From assembly GCA_051294375.1 (NCBI GenBank), contig CM119270.1, positions 19,541,741-19,605,740 on the forward strand: 64,000 bases of DNA, read 5' to 3'. Origin of the DNA: Paraspadella gotoi (lineage: Eukaryota; Animalia; Chaetognatha). A program made the translations under genes and the position numbers. The notes beneath the pieces are model-generated. The model saw nothing but the letters and a program-made list of their open reading frames with translations, made no database searches and was not told where the DNA came from. Below are positions 22,865 to 35,995 of this stretch, in pieces; within the stretch, counting starts at the first letter, position 1, and each line of letters begins with the position of its first letter.

Positions 22865-25800
22865 ACAAACAAACCTTTAAAGAAAAAGCCAACCTGGAAG
22901 ATCCAAAGAGGATGTCGACTCCCATCGTCGAGTCGCCCTCATTGATGACGGTCTTGGGAACAACGTAGAGATGACCGCTGCTGGAAGCGCGACCCTGACA
23001 TTGTAATTTATATTGTAAGTTGTAACGTTTAGCAATTCACTTCACTTCATTTAATATATTATTTATATAATTTACAGTTTATTTATTTTAAATCCAAACT
23101 TGTCTCCCCCCCACTCCCAATATATTGACATCAACATTCTACATACAAAATGTTTTCTTGTAGAACTCTGAATTTTAACTTTATGCTTTCTTCTTCTAAA
23201 AACAATATTCTTAAAATAATTTAACCTTTATTCTAATAATTTACTATTTATATATCGTTTTGAATTAAAAAGTAATCCATCTATGCATAAATGTTTCAAT
23301 AATTTGTTGTCAACGAATCAAACGCATGAATATAAATCCCAACCAGCCCGGGGCACCCACCCCCCCTCCCCCTCACCTTGGAATTGCTCGCCTCGCACAT
23401 GTATTCCCCAGCATCCTCCATGGAGACTTTCTGGATGAGCAGATTCCCGTTGGATAGGACGTTGGCGACCGGGACAGGGATCCCATCTTTGGTCCAGCGG
23501 AACTCGGGGAAGGGCGCCGCCTCGGGGGAACAGGCGATGATGGTCTGACTGCCCAGAGCCGCCATCTCGTGGAGAGAAATGAACGGTGGCGAGGTGAGAC
23601 AGGGATGATGTAGAGTGAAATGTCAAATTAAAATTAACTCCTTCGTCAGTGATTACTTTAGATTTTTATTCGGAATTCTTATACATATTTGTACATATTT
23701 CTTGTACATATTTTAATAATTTCAAATTTTTGTTTTAAAAATTTTAATTATTTTTCATAATTTGAATTTTAGAAATTTAATTCTTTTTTCCTTGACCTTT
23801 TCCCTTCAATCCTGTCAACAAGTCCCTCACATTCTTTCAATATTTTTCTTACATTCACCATATACACTATCATACAGTACCACTTTGATTTCCACACTCT
23901 TCCCGCATCTCAGTTCCACCCTTCCCTTCCATCAATCTACAGTTCTTCCCTTCCAAAGCCACAGTACCAACCACAGCCCCAACCACGGCCACTGTCCCAA
24001 CCTCAGTCACTGACCCAAACACAGCCCAAACCACAGCCACACTCCCAACCTTAGCCCCAAACAAGCCCCAACCACAGCCACAGTCCCAACCACAGCTCCA
24101 ACCACAGCCCCAACAACAGCCACAGTCCCAACCACAGCTCCAACAACAGCCCCAACCACAGTCACAGTCCCAACCACAGCCCGACCCACCTTTCGCCTAT
24201 CGATGGGATTCTTGGAGAATGAAGGAGCAAAGGCCAAAACTCGAAGTTGAGCTGAGGTCGCGACGACGCCGTATTTGTTGCTCGCGATGCATTGGTACAT
24301 TCCTGGCAGAATAAGGTCATCTGTTATATAAACTTTGTATAAAAATTTGCATGATTGTATATCTAAAACTCGCTATTTATCTTACTTTAAAATTTGCTTC
24401 TTTTATACATTTTTCTTATCTATTTTTTTTTAAATGTCATCACATAAATCGTTTTTGAATTTAGCACAGTAATTCCTAAATGTATTACTTTTTATCAAGC
24501 NNNNNNNNNNTAAGATTTTTATTATCTATTTGTATCATAATTTTTTTCTCTGAAGTCAAAGAATTGAAATCTGAAGTTTTTTTAATCTACAGTGCATAAG
24601 CTTAATCTGTAATTTCCATTGTAACTATCTTTTTGGGGTGTTTGGTGCATTAGTCATCGTGTTGAATAAATATAAGTATAATTTTTTTTTGTTGTGAAAT
24701 TGCTCCTTGATCTGTTCTGGAGAATTGTGACATGACCTTTAGCAGAATGAAGATAAGCCACAAGAAGATTGCCTAAATAATCATTCTGACTTTATCTCGT
24801 TTTGTCCAGTCTTTTCTTTCGTATTTGTTCTATTTCTGATAAATGTCGAAAATTAGAATTTTAAAAGCCCGGCAACCAACTTCAGCGTCAAACTTTTATT
24901 GATTCTCCTTTTAAAATAGAAATCTTCAATACAGAGACAATTCTCGATTTAGATAAAAACTCTGAATATATATTACGTTTCAACTTTTAATTCCGCCCCG
25001 AATACATTTTAGATTGTGGACGCGTACACCATAAGGAGGGACGCCTTCACGAAAAACCACCCATTAACGTCATGGCCGCCGCCAAGAGCAAAAGCGTCAT
25101 CGATCCGCATCAGGAGACGCAAGCGCGTAAACTCCTGATGTCTGGTGAAAAGAGTCTGCAGAAGCTGGCGTCCAGCCGCGGCCTCGGAGGCGCAGCTTCG
25201 CAAGGAGACATTAACCCTTTGGCCAAAAGATTGGTTCAGTCCGGCAAGCTCTCGACGAAGGATCAGCAAAAGGTAGAGGATCTGGTCACGGCGCGTAACA
25301 AGCACGCTCACCAATGGAATCAAAAGGACGTCCGAGGGCGAGAGGCCATCGTGGGTGAATTGGTGAAGGGAGTCACGGCGTTGGGATTTTATAATTCACA
25401 GGGAAAAGAGTATGCGACGAAGGGGAGTGGCATGTTCGTTAAAAAAACACCTCATCCCTCCCAACAATTTCACGGCAAGCCAACACAGTCACATCCACAG
25501 AAAAAACATACCAGTCCCGGTCATACTAAACCAGTTCATGCACATCATCCCACTCAAGCAAAAACAACTCATTACAAAGAAAGCACCGGACAAGCTAAAC
25601 CAACTAAGCAGACTCCTGCAACGCACGGTCCTTCAAAAGTAAGTCAGGCGCCATCAGCAAGAAAAAAGACGGTTCAAACCACAACCAAGGCGAAAGGCGG
25701 GCCTTCCTCTACTAAGAAAACGTTTCATGACAAGCCAGGTCGTAAATAATTTTGATTTACAAATTAAGATGCAGTTGATCAAACTTTTGAAATGATTTTT

Positions 25801-28800
25801 CAATGAAATGAAAAACACATGGTAAATGTTCGTAAATTTCATATTTATGGAATAAATATAACACCATTGATTCTCCAATGTAGTTGCAATAAATTATCAA
25901 AAGATCTGAATCAGTCAAAGAATCATCGAATTTAAAATTAACACTATAGCTACGTATAATGTTGTATAATCTTTTTTTTTGGGACTCTACGCAGAGATGG
26001 AATCGCCGAATCCTAATTTGTCGCCGATAAAACCGCCACTGACTCATATGCGTCAAATTTTACCTCGGAATATAACTTAAAAATCAATGATTTCATCCCC
26101 GTCATAGAAATAGCCATAGCCGATGAAATTTAAATGCTAATGAATACAACGTTAAAATAATATATCATAAGCATAGATTAAAATACTTTTTGTCAAAAAT
26201 TATTTTTTCGGAGGGTACTAGCCTAATTAAAATTATTATATTACTATATAAAGCAAAAATTTTTTTTTTGAAATCTTAAAATTTTTTAATGGATTCTGAT
26301 AGAGCATAAAAAGTTAAACAAGAAATATAATCACTGCTTTTAAAAATTCTTACGTTTTCTTAATAAAAATTTTAAAAAACTGATAAAATCAACAAAAGAT
26401 GATGATGATAACGATTTTTTATGGTTTTCTTATTTTTGACCAACTTATCATAAAAATATTATTGAAGTAATCCTTTCTTTTTCGTTGTTACTATTAATTA
26501 GAGAATTGACAAAGTTTTTGTTTGCAACGAATTTTATTTATAGTTGAACAGACATGTTTCGACTTGTTTTACAAGTCTTCATTTGATCAACTATCAACTA
26601 TCAATGTCTGTTCATTGTTCAACTATAAATAAAATTCGTTGCAAACAAAAACTTAGTCAATTCTCTAACATAAAAATATTTAAAAAAGAATTATGCTTTG
26701 TGTAGACAACTTTTTATGAGCTATTTGAATCTGGTCTTAAAAGTTAAAAATTCTAAAAAAATTTTTGACCTTTCCTATCTATAAATAAATATTAAAAAAA
26801 TAATTACTAGGGTATAGAGCCATATAAGAAATTTTTTGTCCATTGAAAGTATACTTAAAAATGTATAAATTTTCGTTTGAGCTTGTACTCACTCTAAATT
26901 TTTGACTCACCCCATTGAGTGCGGCTCCCCCTAATAGAAAGAATTAGTTCGAACTCAAAACGGCTTAATGAAATGATCTCGCCATAACTCGGGACCGATG
27001 CATCGGGGATGGCACTCTAGCTGACTCAAACAATATGGAATAGTGAGTTCCAATGGATGAATGTAATTTTAACGATTTTTTTTTTATCTAAAATTTCTTT
27101 CATGTTATCTCCTTCGTTTTTCTTCTTATTTCAAACTCGTTCTTATGTTATACTCTGCCATAACGACTTCCCGGGGCCGACTCTCTCCCGTGCCAGAGAC
27201 AATTTCGATTCGAGACAGGTTTTATAATCGAACGCAAATCTTGAAGAACAAAAAAAAAACAAAAAAAAACAGACACGACATAACTGAAAATAACGAAAGG
27301 GAAAATAAGAAGCATCAAGAAACTGAAAATCGCTAGATTTTATATTTCTCAATTTTCATTCAGTCTGACGTCAAAAGTAAGTTGCAATTCAAAGATTCAA
27401 ATTATACAGATTTTTTTTAATTATTAAATCTCTGTTTAGATTAAACAATATTTGTTTTCAAAGTTTGCATATGCACTGCATTTTATGCAGTTTTAAGCAC
27501 GAAACGATAATCCAGCTTAAATTGTATTTTGATTTAGCCATTCATTGGTAGCCAAACATAATATCTGAAAGTTAAACTGCAACTTTAAGTAGAACAGCAA
27601 GTACAGCTGCAATAGCAACTGCAAGTGCCATGGGTCGCAAGAAGAAGCAGAAGGTCGAGTTCGATCCGCAGCAGGAATCGCGCGTCCGTCAAAGGCTCAT
27701 TCTCGCGGAGAAGAGTCTCCAACGCCTCGTGGAACGACACGGGCTGCAGATTGATCCGGTCAATAAGGTAGGGGGGCGGGAGAGAAGTTTGCTTGCAAAT
27801 CTTAGACAATCTCTCGAGAGAAAATGTATAAAGTTTTAAGAGTTAGAAGTTGAGTTATAAATTAAAAATAACTTATTGTTGATGTTAAAACAACAATTTT
27901 AATTAATTCTTTATCAATCTCAGTGGGTCTTCTTCGACTAATTATGTATGGTTTTTAATTTATTTACTTACATGTATGTAAATCTCCTTTGAATTAACAT
28001 TACATAGGCACTACTCAAAATAATATGAAAATCATCAACAGAGACGATATAGTTAAAATATTTATAAAATTTACTCGCCCGCTTTTTCGCTGCTTTCCCC
28101 AATTCGCCACAACCAATCACCCGCCAATAACCCCACCTATCCTCAACCAATCACCCGCCTATCCCTCCACCTATCCTCAACCAATCACCCGCCTATCACC
28201 CCACCTATTCTCTCCCATTCCCTAGCCAATCACCTAAACAATCTCCTACTAATCCCCTACCAATCTCCAACCAATCCCCACCTCACACCCCCCCACACTC
28301 CAATCAGGACATCACCGCTCTGGTCGGTCAACTCCTCGAGTCAGGCCAACTCTCTCGCAACGAGCGGCGCCTGGTGGAATCGCTGCGCCTGGCGCGGAAT
28401 CGCCACGCCCACAAGTGGAACGAACTCGACGTTCGGGGTCGCGAGGTCATCGTGGGTCAGTTGGAAAGAGGCGTGACGGGTCTGGGCTTTTTCAATCGTT
28501 GGGAGTGGGACGTCGTGGTGGTGGCCGTGGGTGCTAGAGGCAGTGAGAGAGGGGCGGTGTCTGGGGGCAGGGACACGCCCACATCCGGGGGAGACGCTTC
28601 CGTTTCTGACGACATTTCGTCTTCGGCGGAGGATGAATATTCGCCGGAGGACGATTCGCTGCTGGACGGTGGAGACGTCGAGCAGCAAGAATGCTGCGTT
28701 ATTCTTTAGAGGATGTTGTCTCATTCTTGCTGAAGTAAAACGGATTTACAATCGGCTAATTCGCGTGAAACTAAAATCGACTATTGTCACACTACAGGAA

Positions 28801-29305
28801 ATGGTCTTAGCTTCGCATTCAATTTGACTGTAAAAAGCCCATTTGTCTATTACTTTCATGATCTTATATCGTAAGACAAAAAGTCATTATTTTCGTTTTT
28901 CTATTCGTATTTTTGTTTTTTTATGTTTATGTTTTGTTTCGTTTTGATATGATTTTTTTTATTTGAACTGCTGTCAACACATTATTTAAAAATTGAGAAA
29001 TTTTGTGTTTATAAACAGTTTTTATATTTATTGCTTTTAGGTAAATAACTAACTTAGATAATCTCTATATAAGAGAGAGAGGGAAAGAGAAAGAAAAAGA
29101 AACAGAAATAGAGAGAGAGAGAGATATAGAGATATAGAGAGAGAGATAGAAAGAGAGATTGAGAGATGTATAATGCGACGATCATAAATGGTCTTCAGTT
29201 AGAAGTTTGGTTTAACCAAAGTTCCCTTCTCTCTTTCGGTCATACATCGATATTCAAAGAAAGAGAGAGAGAGAGATTAGGAAAAAAAACTGGTTTTAGC
29301 CTTCT

Positions 29306-29381
<76 letters not shown>

Positions 29382-31196
29382 CAGTTTCAAAGTTATTTTT
29401 GAGAAAAAGCGAATAATTTATTCCAAATGATTAATATTCAACTGTTTATACTATTCTTACGAGTTCAAAAACCTTTTTCCCAGAAATGTTGAAAATGAAA
29501 GTTCTGGGAAATGTAAAGCTTACTTCGATTGCGTCGGAAAAGTTAAGTTTACGAAAAGTCACAAATGTTACAAGTTTTACAACATAAAATCAAACTTTGA
29601 CTGGTAAGTAAAAGACTGATTATTGAATTTAAAAGTACTCATGAAAGTTTCAAAATTACTTGTTTCACCATCTTTATTTTTGATTTTTTAGGTTTAAAAT
29701 AACTATTATTTATGATTTTATTTATTTGTTAAAATATTTTTGTGTTAAATATTTAAATATGAAATTGGTACAAGCAATGTAAAAATTATCCATTCATTTA
29801 ATAAACAAGCTATCTTTGGACAGGCTTTGGTGGTTTGATATTACTGATATTTATATTATATTATAATATTATTAATCTGTTTGGGATGGGAAAGTGAGTG
29901 TTGTCTTATGGAAATAGAGGGTGCAGCTACACAACACAAGGTTAGATTACTTTCTGTTCCAGTTTTCTAATATATATCGTACATCCTTCCTGTTGGAAAA
30001 TCATTAATGAGAAACTCATAATATCCACAAGGCCGAACAAAAAGGGGGGAATATATAATTTTTTGGGGGGATTAAGGTTATATTGTATGATTATTTTCAT
30101 CATAAGGATAACACTACTTAGTAGAATTGTAGGTTCTGATAGGGATACATACTGGGAAAAGTTTCATAGGGGCACCTTTATATTTCGAATGTAATTTTAA
30201 AGTATTTGTTAAAATATCTTTTATTAATTTTTTAAAAAGCTCACTCTCGGCTTCGGGAACCGTATATATTTCTATATCAAAGTATAAATTCAAATAGGTC
30301 ATCAGTCATGGATTTCGGCTCTATTTCACAAAAAAAAATTTTAAACGTTAACAAATCAAAAAGTGTCCTTTGTTTCTCAGACTCCAACTTGTGATACTTT
30401 TGTAAAATTATGTTTGTACGTCCCTCAAATTCAAAAAGTAGTTTTTAAGTTTCGCATTATGTTTAAATAATTTATTTATTCCTTATCCAAAATTACTTTC
30501 CGCCAGAACGTTTATAAATCTTTTACTCTTCCGTCTCCTTCCAACTTCCAATGTCCTTCGTCGACGCCGACCAAGAGGCTCGCGCCAGGCAGCTCGTCAT
30601 TCTGGGAGAGAAAAGCCTGGAACGCCTGATGACCCGTCACCGAATGACCCGCGATCCGGGAGTCAAAGACCCATCTGGTGGAACAGCTCGTGAATTCGAG
30701 AAAACTGTCGTCAAGGGAAAGACGACAGGTGGATGCGTTGCGGATGGCGAGAAACAGACACGCCCACGATTGGGACGGACTCGACGTCAGAGGGCGCGAT
30801 GCAATTGTGAGAGCTGGAGAGGGTCGTATCTGAATTGGGATTCTACGATCCGCGGAATGCTGATTCCGTTGTACGAATAGTGGAACCGAAGCGAGCGAAA
30901 CCAGTGGTCATCCCTATACCGGAACAACATATTCGGCAAAAAGATTCGTGTTGCGTCGTATTGTGACTCGAAATTCCTTGAGAGCAGATTGCGTCTGTAA
31001 ATGCAATGACTGTGAGACTAGGAAATCTCACGATATTTATTAGGTTAATCTTCATAGTTCGACTTATGTTGATTTGTCAATAACTAGAAAAATAAAATTC
31101 TCATATAATTTTTAATTTGTTTAAGAGAGCAGAGTTTATTTATTCTTTAATCGCATAAAAGGACTTAATTTAGGAACAAACGATTTTTTTGTGTGT

Positions 31197-31244
<48 letters not shown>

Positions 31245-34200
31245 AAATCTTCACTCCGAAATCAATGTCTGTAAGAGTGAGTTGTGATAATAGGAGATAA
31301 AATGAAAATACAAATATTTTCTGAAATGCTCAGTTTTTAAAAATAATCAGAAATCATTTCAAACAGATAACAGCCCTTAGATAACTCCCACTAAGTGATA
31401 AGTATTTTAAAAAGTTCTTATCTTTTTTTAAGGAAGCAAATTCCTGATTTAAAAAAAAATCAATATTATTTTTTAACAAAGTCGATGGAAACTACAATTC
31501 TTTCCCGAAGCTTTCCCTTAAGTAGCGTTCGCTCGAATGGACGTCGGGATTTTAAATATTCTCCAAACAATTCTCCCAACATCTCAAAATTTTCTTTCGA
31601 TCAGCCGGAAGAAAAAAAAAAAGAATTCGAAGTGTTCCGTGTCAACTCCGTACGTATGTTGGTGTCTTTATATTTTTTACTTATGATGTACATAAAACGA
31701 ATAAGATCTTAGTTTAAATTTTCTCGCAGAAGCCACTGGAAAACACTCTGACATTCTTCTTCTCAGTTCCACCTTCTTTGCGCGTCAGAGGAGAAATTTA
31801 TAGCATCAGCTATAGAGCCCGACGGTACTGGGTTTTTGACCTTGACGATTTTTTGAAAACACCTGGACTGATATTGAATCCGTTTGAGTTTACGATAGAA
31901 AAAACTCACTCGGACCTCATTCAAGAATTTCAAATTTCATACCCGATGAAAGACTCACTATTTCCCGACGTTTATGTGAGACTGACTTGTACGCGTCCGC
32001 GAATACCTGCAATTAGANNNNNNNNNNTGACTTGTACGCGTCCACGAATACCTGCAATTAGAAGCGATACAAAAATATACCGCCTCGATGAAAAAACCCG
32101 CGAAAAAATACAAAAGTGTCTATCGGAAGATTTTTCGTTTCTCTTAAATTCTGGGGACGGCGCCGACGTCACTATTGAAGTCGATGGCCAAGAATTGAAG
32201 GTTCATCGATTCGTTCTCAAAGCCAGATCAACTTATTTCGCCCAAATGTTCTCAAGCCGAATGATCGAGAACAAAACCGGACGAGTTAAGATCGTCGGCA
32301 TCGGATCCGAGGCATTTGGGGTCATCTTGAAATATCTCTACGCTGGAACCGTGGCCGAAGGCTTCGACGACTACGCTTTGGAGATCTTGCCCAAGGTTGA
32401 AGAAATGATGATGATGGAATTGAAGAATATTTGTGTGGATGCGATGAGAAAAACGATCTCGTTGGAAAGAGTTTGTGATTTTCTTTGCGCTGCTCATATT
32501 TTTAAAATAGAGGATCTCAAGAGGTTGTGTTTGAACTTTGTCAAGAAAAATGCCAAGAGTGTGACAAATACTGAAGGATGGAAAAGATTAATTAAAATTC
32601 CGGATTTGATATCTGAAGTTTTCATTTTTGTGATAATTTCTTAATTTCTCGCTCATCATTTCTATTTCTTTTTCCTCAAAAAAATTATCACTTGGCTCAT
32701 ATATATATAGATGTTATTTGTCTGACTTCGTCACATTCAGCTTTAAAAGAGTTATTATTATTACTTATTGATTTACTTTTGAATATTCTATATTCTTTCC
32801 CTAATGATTAGGCTAATCAATGTAGACGAAAATTTTTTTGGTACATACCTATAATTTTATTTTTATTTCTTTTCCTTAATTAACAAAACACCATCCTTTT
32901 ATCGTGTAACAAAAATTATCAATATTTTTTTTTAATAGTTAAGTAAAATAAATATTTTTATACTTAATGGTTTTAAGAATCATGCGTTTAAATTAGCTAG
33001 GCGAGTTTCGTTACAACATAATTCGAGTTTTGATGTTATTAAGTAACTAGATCAATATTATTTCGCAACATTCAAAACGTAAAACCGAGGGAGAAGCTTT
33101 CATCTCAAACTGTCTCTCTGTTTTAAGTTTTTAACGATTGAGAACAGCAAAGCAGTTTTTTTTATAATTCGGTGCATAATTTAAGCGGGTCATTTATTTT
33201 TTTCCCCTCGATTTTACGATCAAATAAAAAAAATATCACTATCGAGTTTTAAAAAGAAAAAAAGAAACGAAACTGACTTCAGATTGGCTTCTTTAATCGA
33301 CAGACGAAAAAGAAAATTATTCTGTAAGTACATTTGTAAACAGTTATTTTTCTTTCAAATTGTTTTCTTAAATAAATGTTCATAACCCTATTGAATGTTA
33401 AAATGTTTACTAGGTAGTTTTTGTTGGCTTTTGCGGATGCGGTAAAAATGACCTATTATGGTGGAATAAAATTTACCAACCGGTTACTGCAGTCTTTCCA
33501 CTTCCAACCCAAAGGTCGGGGGTTCTAGCCCGGTATCCGCTTTCCCGATTATTAATCGATTTCTAACGATAATCACAGTCCCTTCAGCACTTCGATGCCC
33601 TGAAAATCAAGTCCTTTCTAATCCACCCTTTCCCTCCCTTTTTTTTTTTAGCGAAATGTCTAGTTTCAATCCGCCACCACATCATTTTAACTCAACAAAG
33701 TTCCAAATCGACCCCGACCAAGAAGTTCGCGTCCGTCAACTCCTCATTCTGGGGAAAATGAGCTTGAAACGACTGATAAATCGCTACGGCCTGAATCCTC
33801 TTCAATTTGATAAGGACATCACCCTTTTGGTCAGGGAGCTTGAATGTTCTGGAAAAATGTCACCGGAGGAGCATCGGTGGGTGAATATGCTTCGGTCGGC
33901 GCGAAACAGTCACGCCCACGATTGGGATAACGTCGGAAGGCGCAACACAATCATGACGGATTTGGAAACTGCCATTTCTGAAATGGGATTTTACGATCCG
34001 CGGAATGGAGATTACTTCGAGAATGTAGTGGAACCGGTTTTCCAACCGCCAACACGGTCACCAATGGAAGGTTCTGTCTCAACTCTGGTAGAGCCACATA
34101 CTGTACTGACAAAACAAGTGGAGCCCAAAAGATTCTATGAATTGCGGAACAGAAATTACTTTGTGAATACAGTGGAACCGGTTTCTCAGTTACCGGAGTG

Positions 34201-35995
34201 CCGATTACCGGAGTACAGATTGCCGGAGCACCAATTTACACAGTACCAATCGCCAGAGCAATCAAAGCCCGTATTTATTCCGACAACCAAGAACACAACG
34301 CCCATCAGCAATATGATGGCAACCAACCAATGTTGCACTGTGTCTCCAGTTTTGTCGGATTGGAAGGCTCATTCTGTCAAAAGCATTGTGGAAAAGAAGA
34401 GAGCAGATTCTGTCAAGTCACCAATATGGTCACCAATGGAAGGTTCTGTCTCAATTCTGGTAGAGCCAGATCCTGTACCGACAAAACAGGTGGAGCCCAA
34501 AAGATTATATGAATCGCAGAAAGGAGATTACTGCCGGAATATAGAGGGCTTTGGGCCAAAGCGCTCAAAGCTGAAAGGTCTGTCGACAGTGTGCGATGAG
34601 CCCAAGCATGTTGAGCCCCAGCGGGCTGACCTCAAGGGCGTTGAGCCCAAAAGCTTAGTGGCCAAGTGTGCAAAGCCAGAACGTTTGTCGACAGTGTGCG
34701 ATGAGCCCAAGCATGTCGAGCCCCGGCAGGCTGACCTCAAGGGCGTTGAGCCCAAAAGCTTAGTGCCCAATGGTGCAAAGCCAAAATGTCTGTCGACAGT
34801 TTGCAATGATCCTAAGCGTGTTGAGCCACAGCAGGCTGACCACAAGGGCGTTCAGCCCAAAAGCTTTGTGCCCAAGTGCGCAAAGCAAAAACGTCTGTCG
34901 ACAGTGGGCGATGACGCAAAGCCCAAGCGCGATCAGCCTAAACAAATAAAGCCGACAGTCACAAACGATGAGCCCATTGGAAACTTGGCGCCAAGAGAAC
35001 AATGTTGCGTTATAATGTGACTCATTGACTTACCAATCGATGAGTCGAATCGAACAGTCAAAAAGCAATGACTCAAAATTTAACTCACCGTCGTTTTTTT
35101 CCCACGTTGAGATTTTTCTTCTAATTTTTCCTTAGTTATTTCAATGTAATAAGATGCGACTGACTATCAAATGTTTAATTTGGACATGATTTTTATTTTA
35201 AATTATTATTACAATGATATTAGATGGTAAGCATAATATTTTTCACGTCCAAAACAAATACGTACGTAATATTACGTACGTTATTATTATTATTTGTTTT
35301 GGACGTTAAAAATATTATGCTTACCATCTAATATCATTGTAATAAGTTGGTAATATCATTGAAGTTGTAATATCATTGTAGCAGGATTACGCTGATTAAA
35401 ACGAGTAATTAAACTTTAACTTAAAGGTACAAAGGAAGGCCCTCTTTTCCGAAAGTCCCCCGTTTCAACTTGAATTCAGAATTAAGTTAGTGGTTTGGGA
35501 TAGTGAGTGGATTTCGAATGAGGTTAGCGATTAGGTTAGGGATTTGATTAAAGTTTTGGTTAGGGTCTCTCACCCGAATCGCTTTCCACGACTCCGTTGA
35601 TCCTTATTGTGTTTCTTTTCATTGTGATCCTCTTAAGCAAGCCGTGCCGTCGGCGCACGTGGGGCAGCGATAGATCTTCGGTGTTTTTGAGCCAAACGTA
35701 GACCGGCTCGGGGTGCGCGCGAGCTGTGCACGTCCAGGTGAGATCGCGCCCGGAGTCGACGTGTTTGTCTTGCAGCGGAATGTCGAAGGTGGGTTTCACT
35801 GCGTGAAGTAGAGAGGAATTCTTATAAGTTTTATTGTACATTTTTTTAATAAATAACTTTTGTTTTTTTTATTTTTTGTTTATTTTGATTCTTTTTTTAA
35901 TGATTCAATTATCAAATTTCGTCGTTCTAACATTTATATTTTTTTAAATTTATTTTATTTCTTTATTTTATTTCTTTATTTATTTATTTATTTCT

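Follow-up and report, generated by a model that had tools for sequence, protein, structure and literature searches.

HEPN-like paralogues with CCaaX termini, nested in a contactin intron of the chaetognath Paraspadella gotoi

Multi-copy families of HEPN-domain proteins have been described in several animals, such as Swt1-like proteins in Daphnia (46 copies), KEN in Oikopleura and paREP in Caenorhabditis (passages of PMC3710099), as well as a DZIP3/hRUL138-like expansion in the pearl oyster (passages of PMC9646362). Here, we analysed a 64-kb window of Paraspadella gotoi DNA (GenBank assembly GCA_051294375.1, contig CM119270.1, positions 19,541,741 to 19,605,740, forward strand), in which tblastn finds exactly four paralogues, numbered copies 1 to 4, that probably encode a HEPN domain. 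This array is reminiscent of the animal expansions, which are also multi-copy, diverging and equipped with R-N-x3-H, and for which those passages propose an antiviral or anti-transposon role and report no experimental function. However, the Paraspadella copies have no NACHT, death or repeat domain, and their domain spans about 100 residues and is devoid of helix-1. Moreover, the C-terminal CCaaX of the copies described here, a CaaX motif preceded by a second Cys, goes unmentioned for those families in the same passages.

Other described systems resemble parts of this array. The best full-length structural and in-register sequence matches are Csm6, HepT (SO_3166) and RnlA (PDB 6tug, 4rgp, 5yep), which have the E and R-x4-H motifs in common with the copies but are prokaryotic and show a structural identity of ~10%. 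These proteins are controlled by antitoxins or, for Csm6-type HEPN RNases, by CARF domains, and no such regulator is encoded here. RnlA-type HEPN RNases are active only as canonical dimers, in which the site is composite (passages of PMC8266594). Ire1 (KEN) and C6orf70 (DUF4209) also have a HEPN domain on the cytosolic face of a membrane (passages of PMC3710099). In contrast to the copies described here, which are lineage-restricted and sensor-less with a predicted lipid anchor, they are eukaryote-wide and use transmembrane helices, with a kinase switch in Ire1. OAS1 p46 is a prenylated antiviral isoform whose CaaX tail gives access to viral replication membranes (passages of PMC8357416). In both cases, isoforms or paralogues differ in a CaaX tail, which would decide whether they reach endomembranes, the site of replication of many RNA viruses. 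However, OAS1 is a sensor that activates the soluble RNase L and has no homology to the copies, in which the anchor would sit on the nuclease itself. Finally, Ras2 (CCIIS) and Ykt6 (CCAIM), which are unrelated to the copies, display the same terminal pattern after a hydrophilic linker.

The HEPN-like domain and the CCaaX termini

A first-pass annotation of the window had viewed the copies as putative HEPN nucleases, which our analysis makes probable. The HEPN RNase motif is defined as Rx4-6H with a polar N, D or H following R, and typically comes with an upstream Ex3[KR] in helix-2 (passages of PMC3710099). All four copies contain R-N-x-H-A-H, which fits Rx4-6H with a polar residue after R, and an equally invariant E-x3-R, which lies 59-60 residues ahead of the motif Arg and opens the first long helix of the predicted models. 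These models consist of four helices, without helix-1, in a domain of ~100 residues. In copy 4, the motif (residues 70-75) is modelled within helix 57-76, with an insert helix at 42-52, which is consistent with the HEPN definition, while in copy 1 it is modelled (residues 71-76) within helix 58-80. Sequence-profile, structure and language-model searches all place HEPN families among the leading matches, the motif being in register and lying at the helix end expected of it. However, the three lines are in part dependent on one another, because the sequence matches are driven by the motif. The full-length model matches that recur are HEPN domains (Csm6, sacsin and AF0298). Together, the four-copy motifs and these matches suggest that the domain is probably HEPN.

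The paralogues, which share 39-59% identity, are under purifying selection in this domain. The dN/dS ratio is 0.21-0.41 in four of the six pairs, the other two being saturated, and these are rough values obtained on ~95 domain codons. With a pS of 0.58-0.79, silent sites in the domain are almost saturated, and the copies are therefore old, their terminus having been held while the tails were rebuilt. The tree has the topology (copy 1, copy 2, (copy 3, copy 4)), with a support of 85.

According to the first-pass annotation, copies 2, 3 and 4 end QQECCVIL, KDSCCVVL and REQCCVIM. These letters are present and are not there by chance. When the stop codons preceded by five clean codons were counted in six frames of the window, CaaX was found before 8 of 4,473 stops and CCaaX before 3, which are those of copies 2, 3 and 4. 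The claim fails for copy 3 as assembled, in which KDSCCVVL is not translated. A CaaX is thus found at the translated C terminus of copy 2 (CVIL, given the inferred intron) and copy 4 (CVIM), but neither in copy 1 nor in copy 3 as assembled. As also claimed, the linkers differ widely in length, with 24, 64 and 339 residues after position 115, the longest being that of copy 4. By inspection, the Cys is preceded by a flexible hydrophilic linker of ~11 residues, as described in passages of PMC1175975.

The proposal that selection keeps the CCaaX ends is strengthened by two findings. Pairwise comparison of the last six codons gives 5, 4 and 3 differing codons in the three pairs. Of these 12, stop included, 8 are silent and the other 4 are I/V or L/M exchanges, and no Cys is lost. 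Moreover, residues 209-230 of copy 4 duplicate its own last 22 residues, with a local score of 56 that none of 2,000 shuffles reaches and 39 of 66 bases identical without gaps. This internal duplicate has decayed, while the terminal one is intact. Homology among the 3' untranslated regions was considered and rejected, the scores being no better than for pairs involving copy 1. There is no strong donor by which copies 2-4 could be spliced past their stops, since the best ones score 0.7, 2.3 and 1.6 with a generic matrix, which gives two donors inferred to be real scores of 4.2 and 4.9.

Copy 3 is broken as assembled. Compared to its paralogues, it has a net deletion of 5 nt near 30671 and another of 2 nt near 30813, so that its start ATG, RNRHAH and CCVVL each fall in a frame of their own. 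Translation from the ATG gives 109 residues without either motif. However, there is no premature stop in any of the three segments. In a neutral simulation (2,000 runs per divergence level), the probability that copy 3 remains open with both motifs kept is 0.05 at 0.1 substitutions per site and 0.002 at 0.2. Since this outcome is improbable under neutrality, the breaks are recent or they are assembly errors. Rescue of copy 3 by introns was rejected because donors beside the breaks score at most 0.8, and the only in-frame candidates found by inspection are 13 and 25 nt long.

Diversification in this family concerns the tail and whether an anchor is present. Copy 1 is unanchored, with a basic, low-complexity tail (22 K+R versus 2 D+E in 110 residues). 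The tail of copy 2 is acidic (10 D+E and neither K nor R in the final 30 residues), that of copy 3 short, and that of copy 4 long and repetitive.

Predicted lipid anchors, proposed mechanism and alternatives

The first-pass annotation had also seen diversified prenyl specificity in these termini, which is not borne out. The change from L to M between copies 3 and 4 is a single base, one of the two copies with Leu is broken, and both CVIL and CVIM are dual-enzyme substrates. In humanised yeast, modification by human geranylgeranyltransferase I (GGTase-I) is complete for CVIL and almost complete for CVIM, and farnesyltransferase (FTase) modifies CVIM fully (passages of PMC11152559, a text in which CVVL does not figure). 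FTase also accepts CVIL in vitro (passages of PMC1175975). These data were obtained with human and yeast enzymes, which may not match those of the host. A single substitution between dual substrates is no evidence of selected diversification. Since the tree pairs copies 3 and 4, Leu is likely to be ancestral and Met to have arisen in copy 4. A geranylgeranyl tendency on copy 2 and a farnesyl one on copy 4 are possible.

The Cys just before the CaaX probably serves as another site of lipidation. In yeast Ras2, which ends CCIIS, the upstream Cys is palmitoylated, and this is the usual case. PMC11152559 likewise describes, in part of its text, the Ras2 Cys as typically palmitoylated, and palmitoylation is plausible here as well. 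Ykt6 is an exception, its CCAIM being doubly prenylated in a manner where prenylation of the second Cys needs recognition of Ykt6 by PTAR1 (passages of PMC12001115). As for the other end of the protein, we confirmed that copy 2 starts with MGRKKKQK at 27630. However, the N-terminal Gly anchor that had been proposed for it does not hold up, since K5, K6 and Q7 depart from the N-myristoyltransferase pattern [^DEKR][ACGST][KR], which admits some exceptions at positions 6 and 7 (passages of PMC9018777), making myristoylation unlikely. This N terminus is possibly a basic patch or a nuclear signal.

Our preferred explanation, to which we would give an even chance, is that the contactin intron contains tandem minimal HEPN RNase paralogues, of which copies 2 and 4 are lipid-anchored as predicted, copy 1 is unanchored and copy 3 is frameshifted as assembled. 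If CaaX biochemistry applies, the Cys four from the end would be prenylated by GGTase-I or FTase (either one on CVIL or CVIM) before trimming and methylation of the end, and its neighbouring Cys would receive another lipid, palmitate being the most likely. Its acidic tail would make copy 2 dependent on this second lipid. By extension from HEPN biology, the R-N-x3-H motifs of two protomers would then form a single metal-independent RNase site. As these proteins lack a sensor domain, being held at the membrane may raise their local concentration and set both the site of dimerisation and the RNA to be cut, either membrane-bound mRNA or viral RNA, while copy 1 may act in the cytosol or nucleus, or be recruited as a heterodimer. 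The first-pass annotation had likewise proposed that membrane tethering could drive HEPN dimerisation or bring the proteins to viral replication membranes, both of which are arguments by analogy. We are doubtful about, but find worth stating, the more specific idea that copies 2 and 4 dimerise only on membranes (mutually or with copy 1), with location replacing the sensor and the paralogues diversifying via tail rebuilding and gain or loss of the anchor.

By analogy, the role of the array is likely to be innate defence or stress-triggered RNA decay. Defence would be the likeliest purpose because the multi-copy HEPN families of Daphnia, Oikopleura, nematodes and the pearl oyster are read in this way, and because the CaaX isoform of OAS1 reaches viral membranes. 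We favour reading the copies as a lineage-specific family of sensor-less HEPN RNases, some of them membrane-anchored, that probably serve defence. The HEPN nucleases known to be membrane-bound rely on transmembrane helices, and OAS1 p46, the prenylated antiviral protein considered above, works as a sensor. If our reading is true, a HEPN domain of ~100 residues with nothing but a lipid tail would be about the simplest possible membrane-targeted RNase and would enlarge the small set of antiviral effectors from invertebrates. It would also make it worthwhile to screen HEPN expansions in animals for the CaaX ends that domain-centred surveys overlook.

Searches for relatives came back blank. There was no relative of copy 1 or of the family alignment at near lengths in a 5.8-billion set, none of the family profile at E 0.001 in 1.84 billion representatives of all lengths, no close relative of single queries in metagenome, viral and prokaryotic genome contigs, and none in plasmids. 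PADLOC returned nothing, and 0 of 3 exact sequences, including copies 1 and 4, were found in a protein collection. However, the unrelated BTB-BACK gene that lies within the array has no homologue at E 1e-10 in the collections searched either. The collections therefore probably lack the host's kin, and the blank searches say little about novelty. No description of a prenylated stand-alone HEPN protein was found in the literature searched, in which few subscription papers were covered.

Against a HEPN assignment, no single profile or structure score is significant. The match to HEPN_Swt1 (PF18731) reaches 15.2 bits, compared to a Pfam gathering cut-off of 27.5, with a best E of 0.0072, no other named Pfam HEPN family passes its cut-off either, PF18738 is not returned by Pfam searches of the copies, and Foldseek finds nothing at E 0.001 in the PDB and viral models. 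Moreover, the six-frame translation of the window contains 12 instances of RNxxxH. The copies might hence be generic helical bundles with a chance R-N-x3-H, serving as small lipidated scaffolds of unrelated function, which we consider very unlikely because the three search types, albeit partly dependent, agree on HEPN families with the motif in register. If the fold is HEPN, the anchored copies might be non-catalytic, acting as RNA binders, decoys, or tethers that recruit or restrain the soluble copy 1. Consistent with this, the models are devoid of helix-1, and copy 4, whose branch is the longest of the anchored copies, has a Lys where the others have their second Glu and a two-residue deletion following the motif, while inactive HEPN expansions exist in nematodes (passages of PMC3710099). 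However, none of the four copies departs from the R, N and H residues or from the E-x3-R ahead of them, although their silent sites are almost saturated, which makes loss of catalysis improbable.

An array of lipid-anchored HEPN proteins could also have a housekeeping, germline or developmental role, such as the local decay of membrane-bound mRNA, as for KEN/Ire1 or as proposed for C6orf70. HEPN RNases of the endoplasmic reticulum membrane are indeed known or proposed in eukaryotes (passages of PMC3710099), the copies have no fused sensor or immune domain, and their dN/dS is well below 1. Yet the lack of relatives in the 1.84 billion representatives, the tandem birth and death of copies and the fast rebuilding of tails point to defence-gene turnover more than to a conserved function, and we view such a role as unlikely. 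Finally, the whole array might consist of dying or unexpressed relics, with copy 3 the first to show decay. The frameshifts in copy 3, the absence of copies 1 and 4 from the protein collection and the lack of AATAAA or ATTAAA within 600 nt of the copy 2 stop would fit. However, copies 1, 2 and 4 are open for 225, 179 and 454 codons, and the repeats in copy 4 are all in frame, leaving this scenario with hardly any likelihood.

Gene structures and genomic setting

The coordinates of the features are listed in Table 1. Removal of the copy 2 intron, which we infer from homology, gives exact in-frame colinearity with the intronless copies. Since copies 1, 3 and 4 do not have this intron, a single gain in copy 2 is the simplest reading given the tree. 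An AG/G site is repeated at both ends of the intron. If the intron were retained (27630-27839), the frame would be 69 residues long and end in CIKF-stop, which resembles a CaaX only poorly and probably by chance.

Table 1. Features of the HEPN-like array and its surroundings (positions in the window)
Feature	Position	Strand	Description
Copy 1	25072..25749	+	Intact open reading frame of 225 residues; HEPN-like domain, E15-x3-R, RNKHAH 25294-25311; no CaaX
Copy 2, exon 1	27630..27767	+	E16-x3-R
Copy 2, intron (inferred)	27768..28307	+	540 nt, GT-AG, phase 0; holds a 34-bp minisatellite
Copy 2, exon 2	28308..28709	+	RNRHAH 28395-28412, acidic tail, CCVIL-stop 28692-28709; spliced product of 179 residues
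Copy 3	30551..30966	+	Broken as assembled; remnants E-x3-R, RNRHAH 30750-30767, CCVVL-stop 30949-30966
Copy 4	33656..35020	+	Intact open reading frame of 454 residues; HEPN-like domain, E23-x3-R, RNSHAH 33902-33919, 339-residue tail that arose by internal duplications, CCVIM-stop 35003-35020
Decayed internal copy of copy 4 C terminus	34280..34345	+	Residues 209-230; QCC then TVS, no stop
Tandem repeat in copy 4 tail	34566..34914	+	105 bp (35 residues), 3.3 copies, in frame
BTB-BACK (SPOP-like) gene, unrelated	31485..32644	+	Between copies 3 and 4; Pfam BTB E 4e-21; first exon tentative
Contactin-gene intron hosting the array	24303..35573	-	GT-AG, 11,271 nt; splits an Ig domain; exon junction in frame

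Splice-like signals are also seen around two other copies. Poly-T and an acceptor-like AG are found at 33630-33655, the AG being 4 nt before the ATG of copy 4, which likely has an upstream exon or a trans-spliced leader, so that its true N terminus may differ. In copy 1, a donor-like GTAAGT at 25639, in phase 0 after residue 189, scores 5.8, which is higher than the two inferred real donors. We rejected a hidden CaaX exon beyond this site because, with three candidate acceptors, there is no in-frame exon ending C-x3-stop before copy 2. Splicing from 25639 into exon 2 of copy 2, which is likewise in phase 0, would give copy 1 an anchor.

The four paralogues and the BTB-BACK gene are on the strand opposite to that of the host contactin intron, and are thus nested antisense. 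The contactin exons have Pfam matches to Ig and fn3, and their top PDB sequence matches are contactin-2 and contactin-1 (E 1.6e-26). The BTB-BACK gene, on the same strand as the HEPN-like copies, has an unclassified N-terminal half and contains an assembly gap (32018-32027), with a 23-nt repeat across the Ns that looks like an assembly overlap. Further out, exons of a receptor kinase (~8.5-13.5 kb, plus strand), which we take to be Eph-type where Pfam returned kinase only, are in a tail-to-tail arrangement with the multi-exon contactin gene (~19-50 kb, minus strand).

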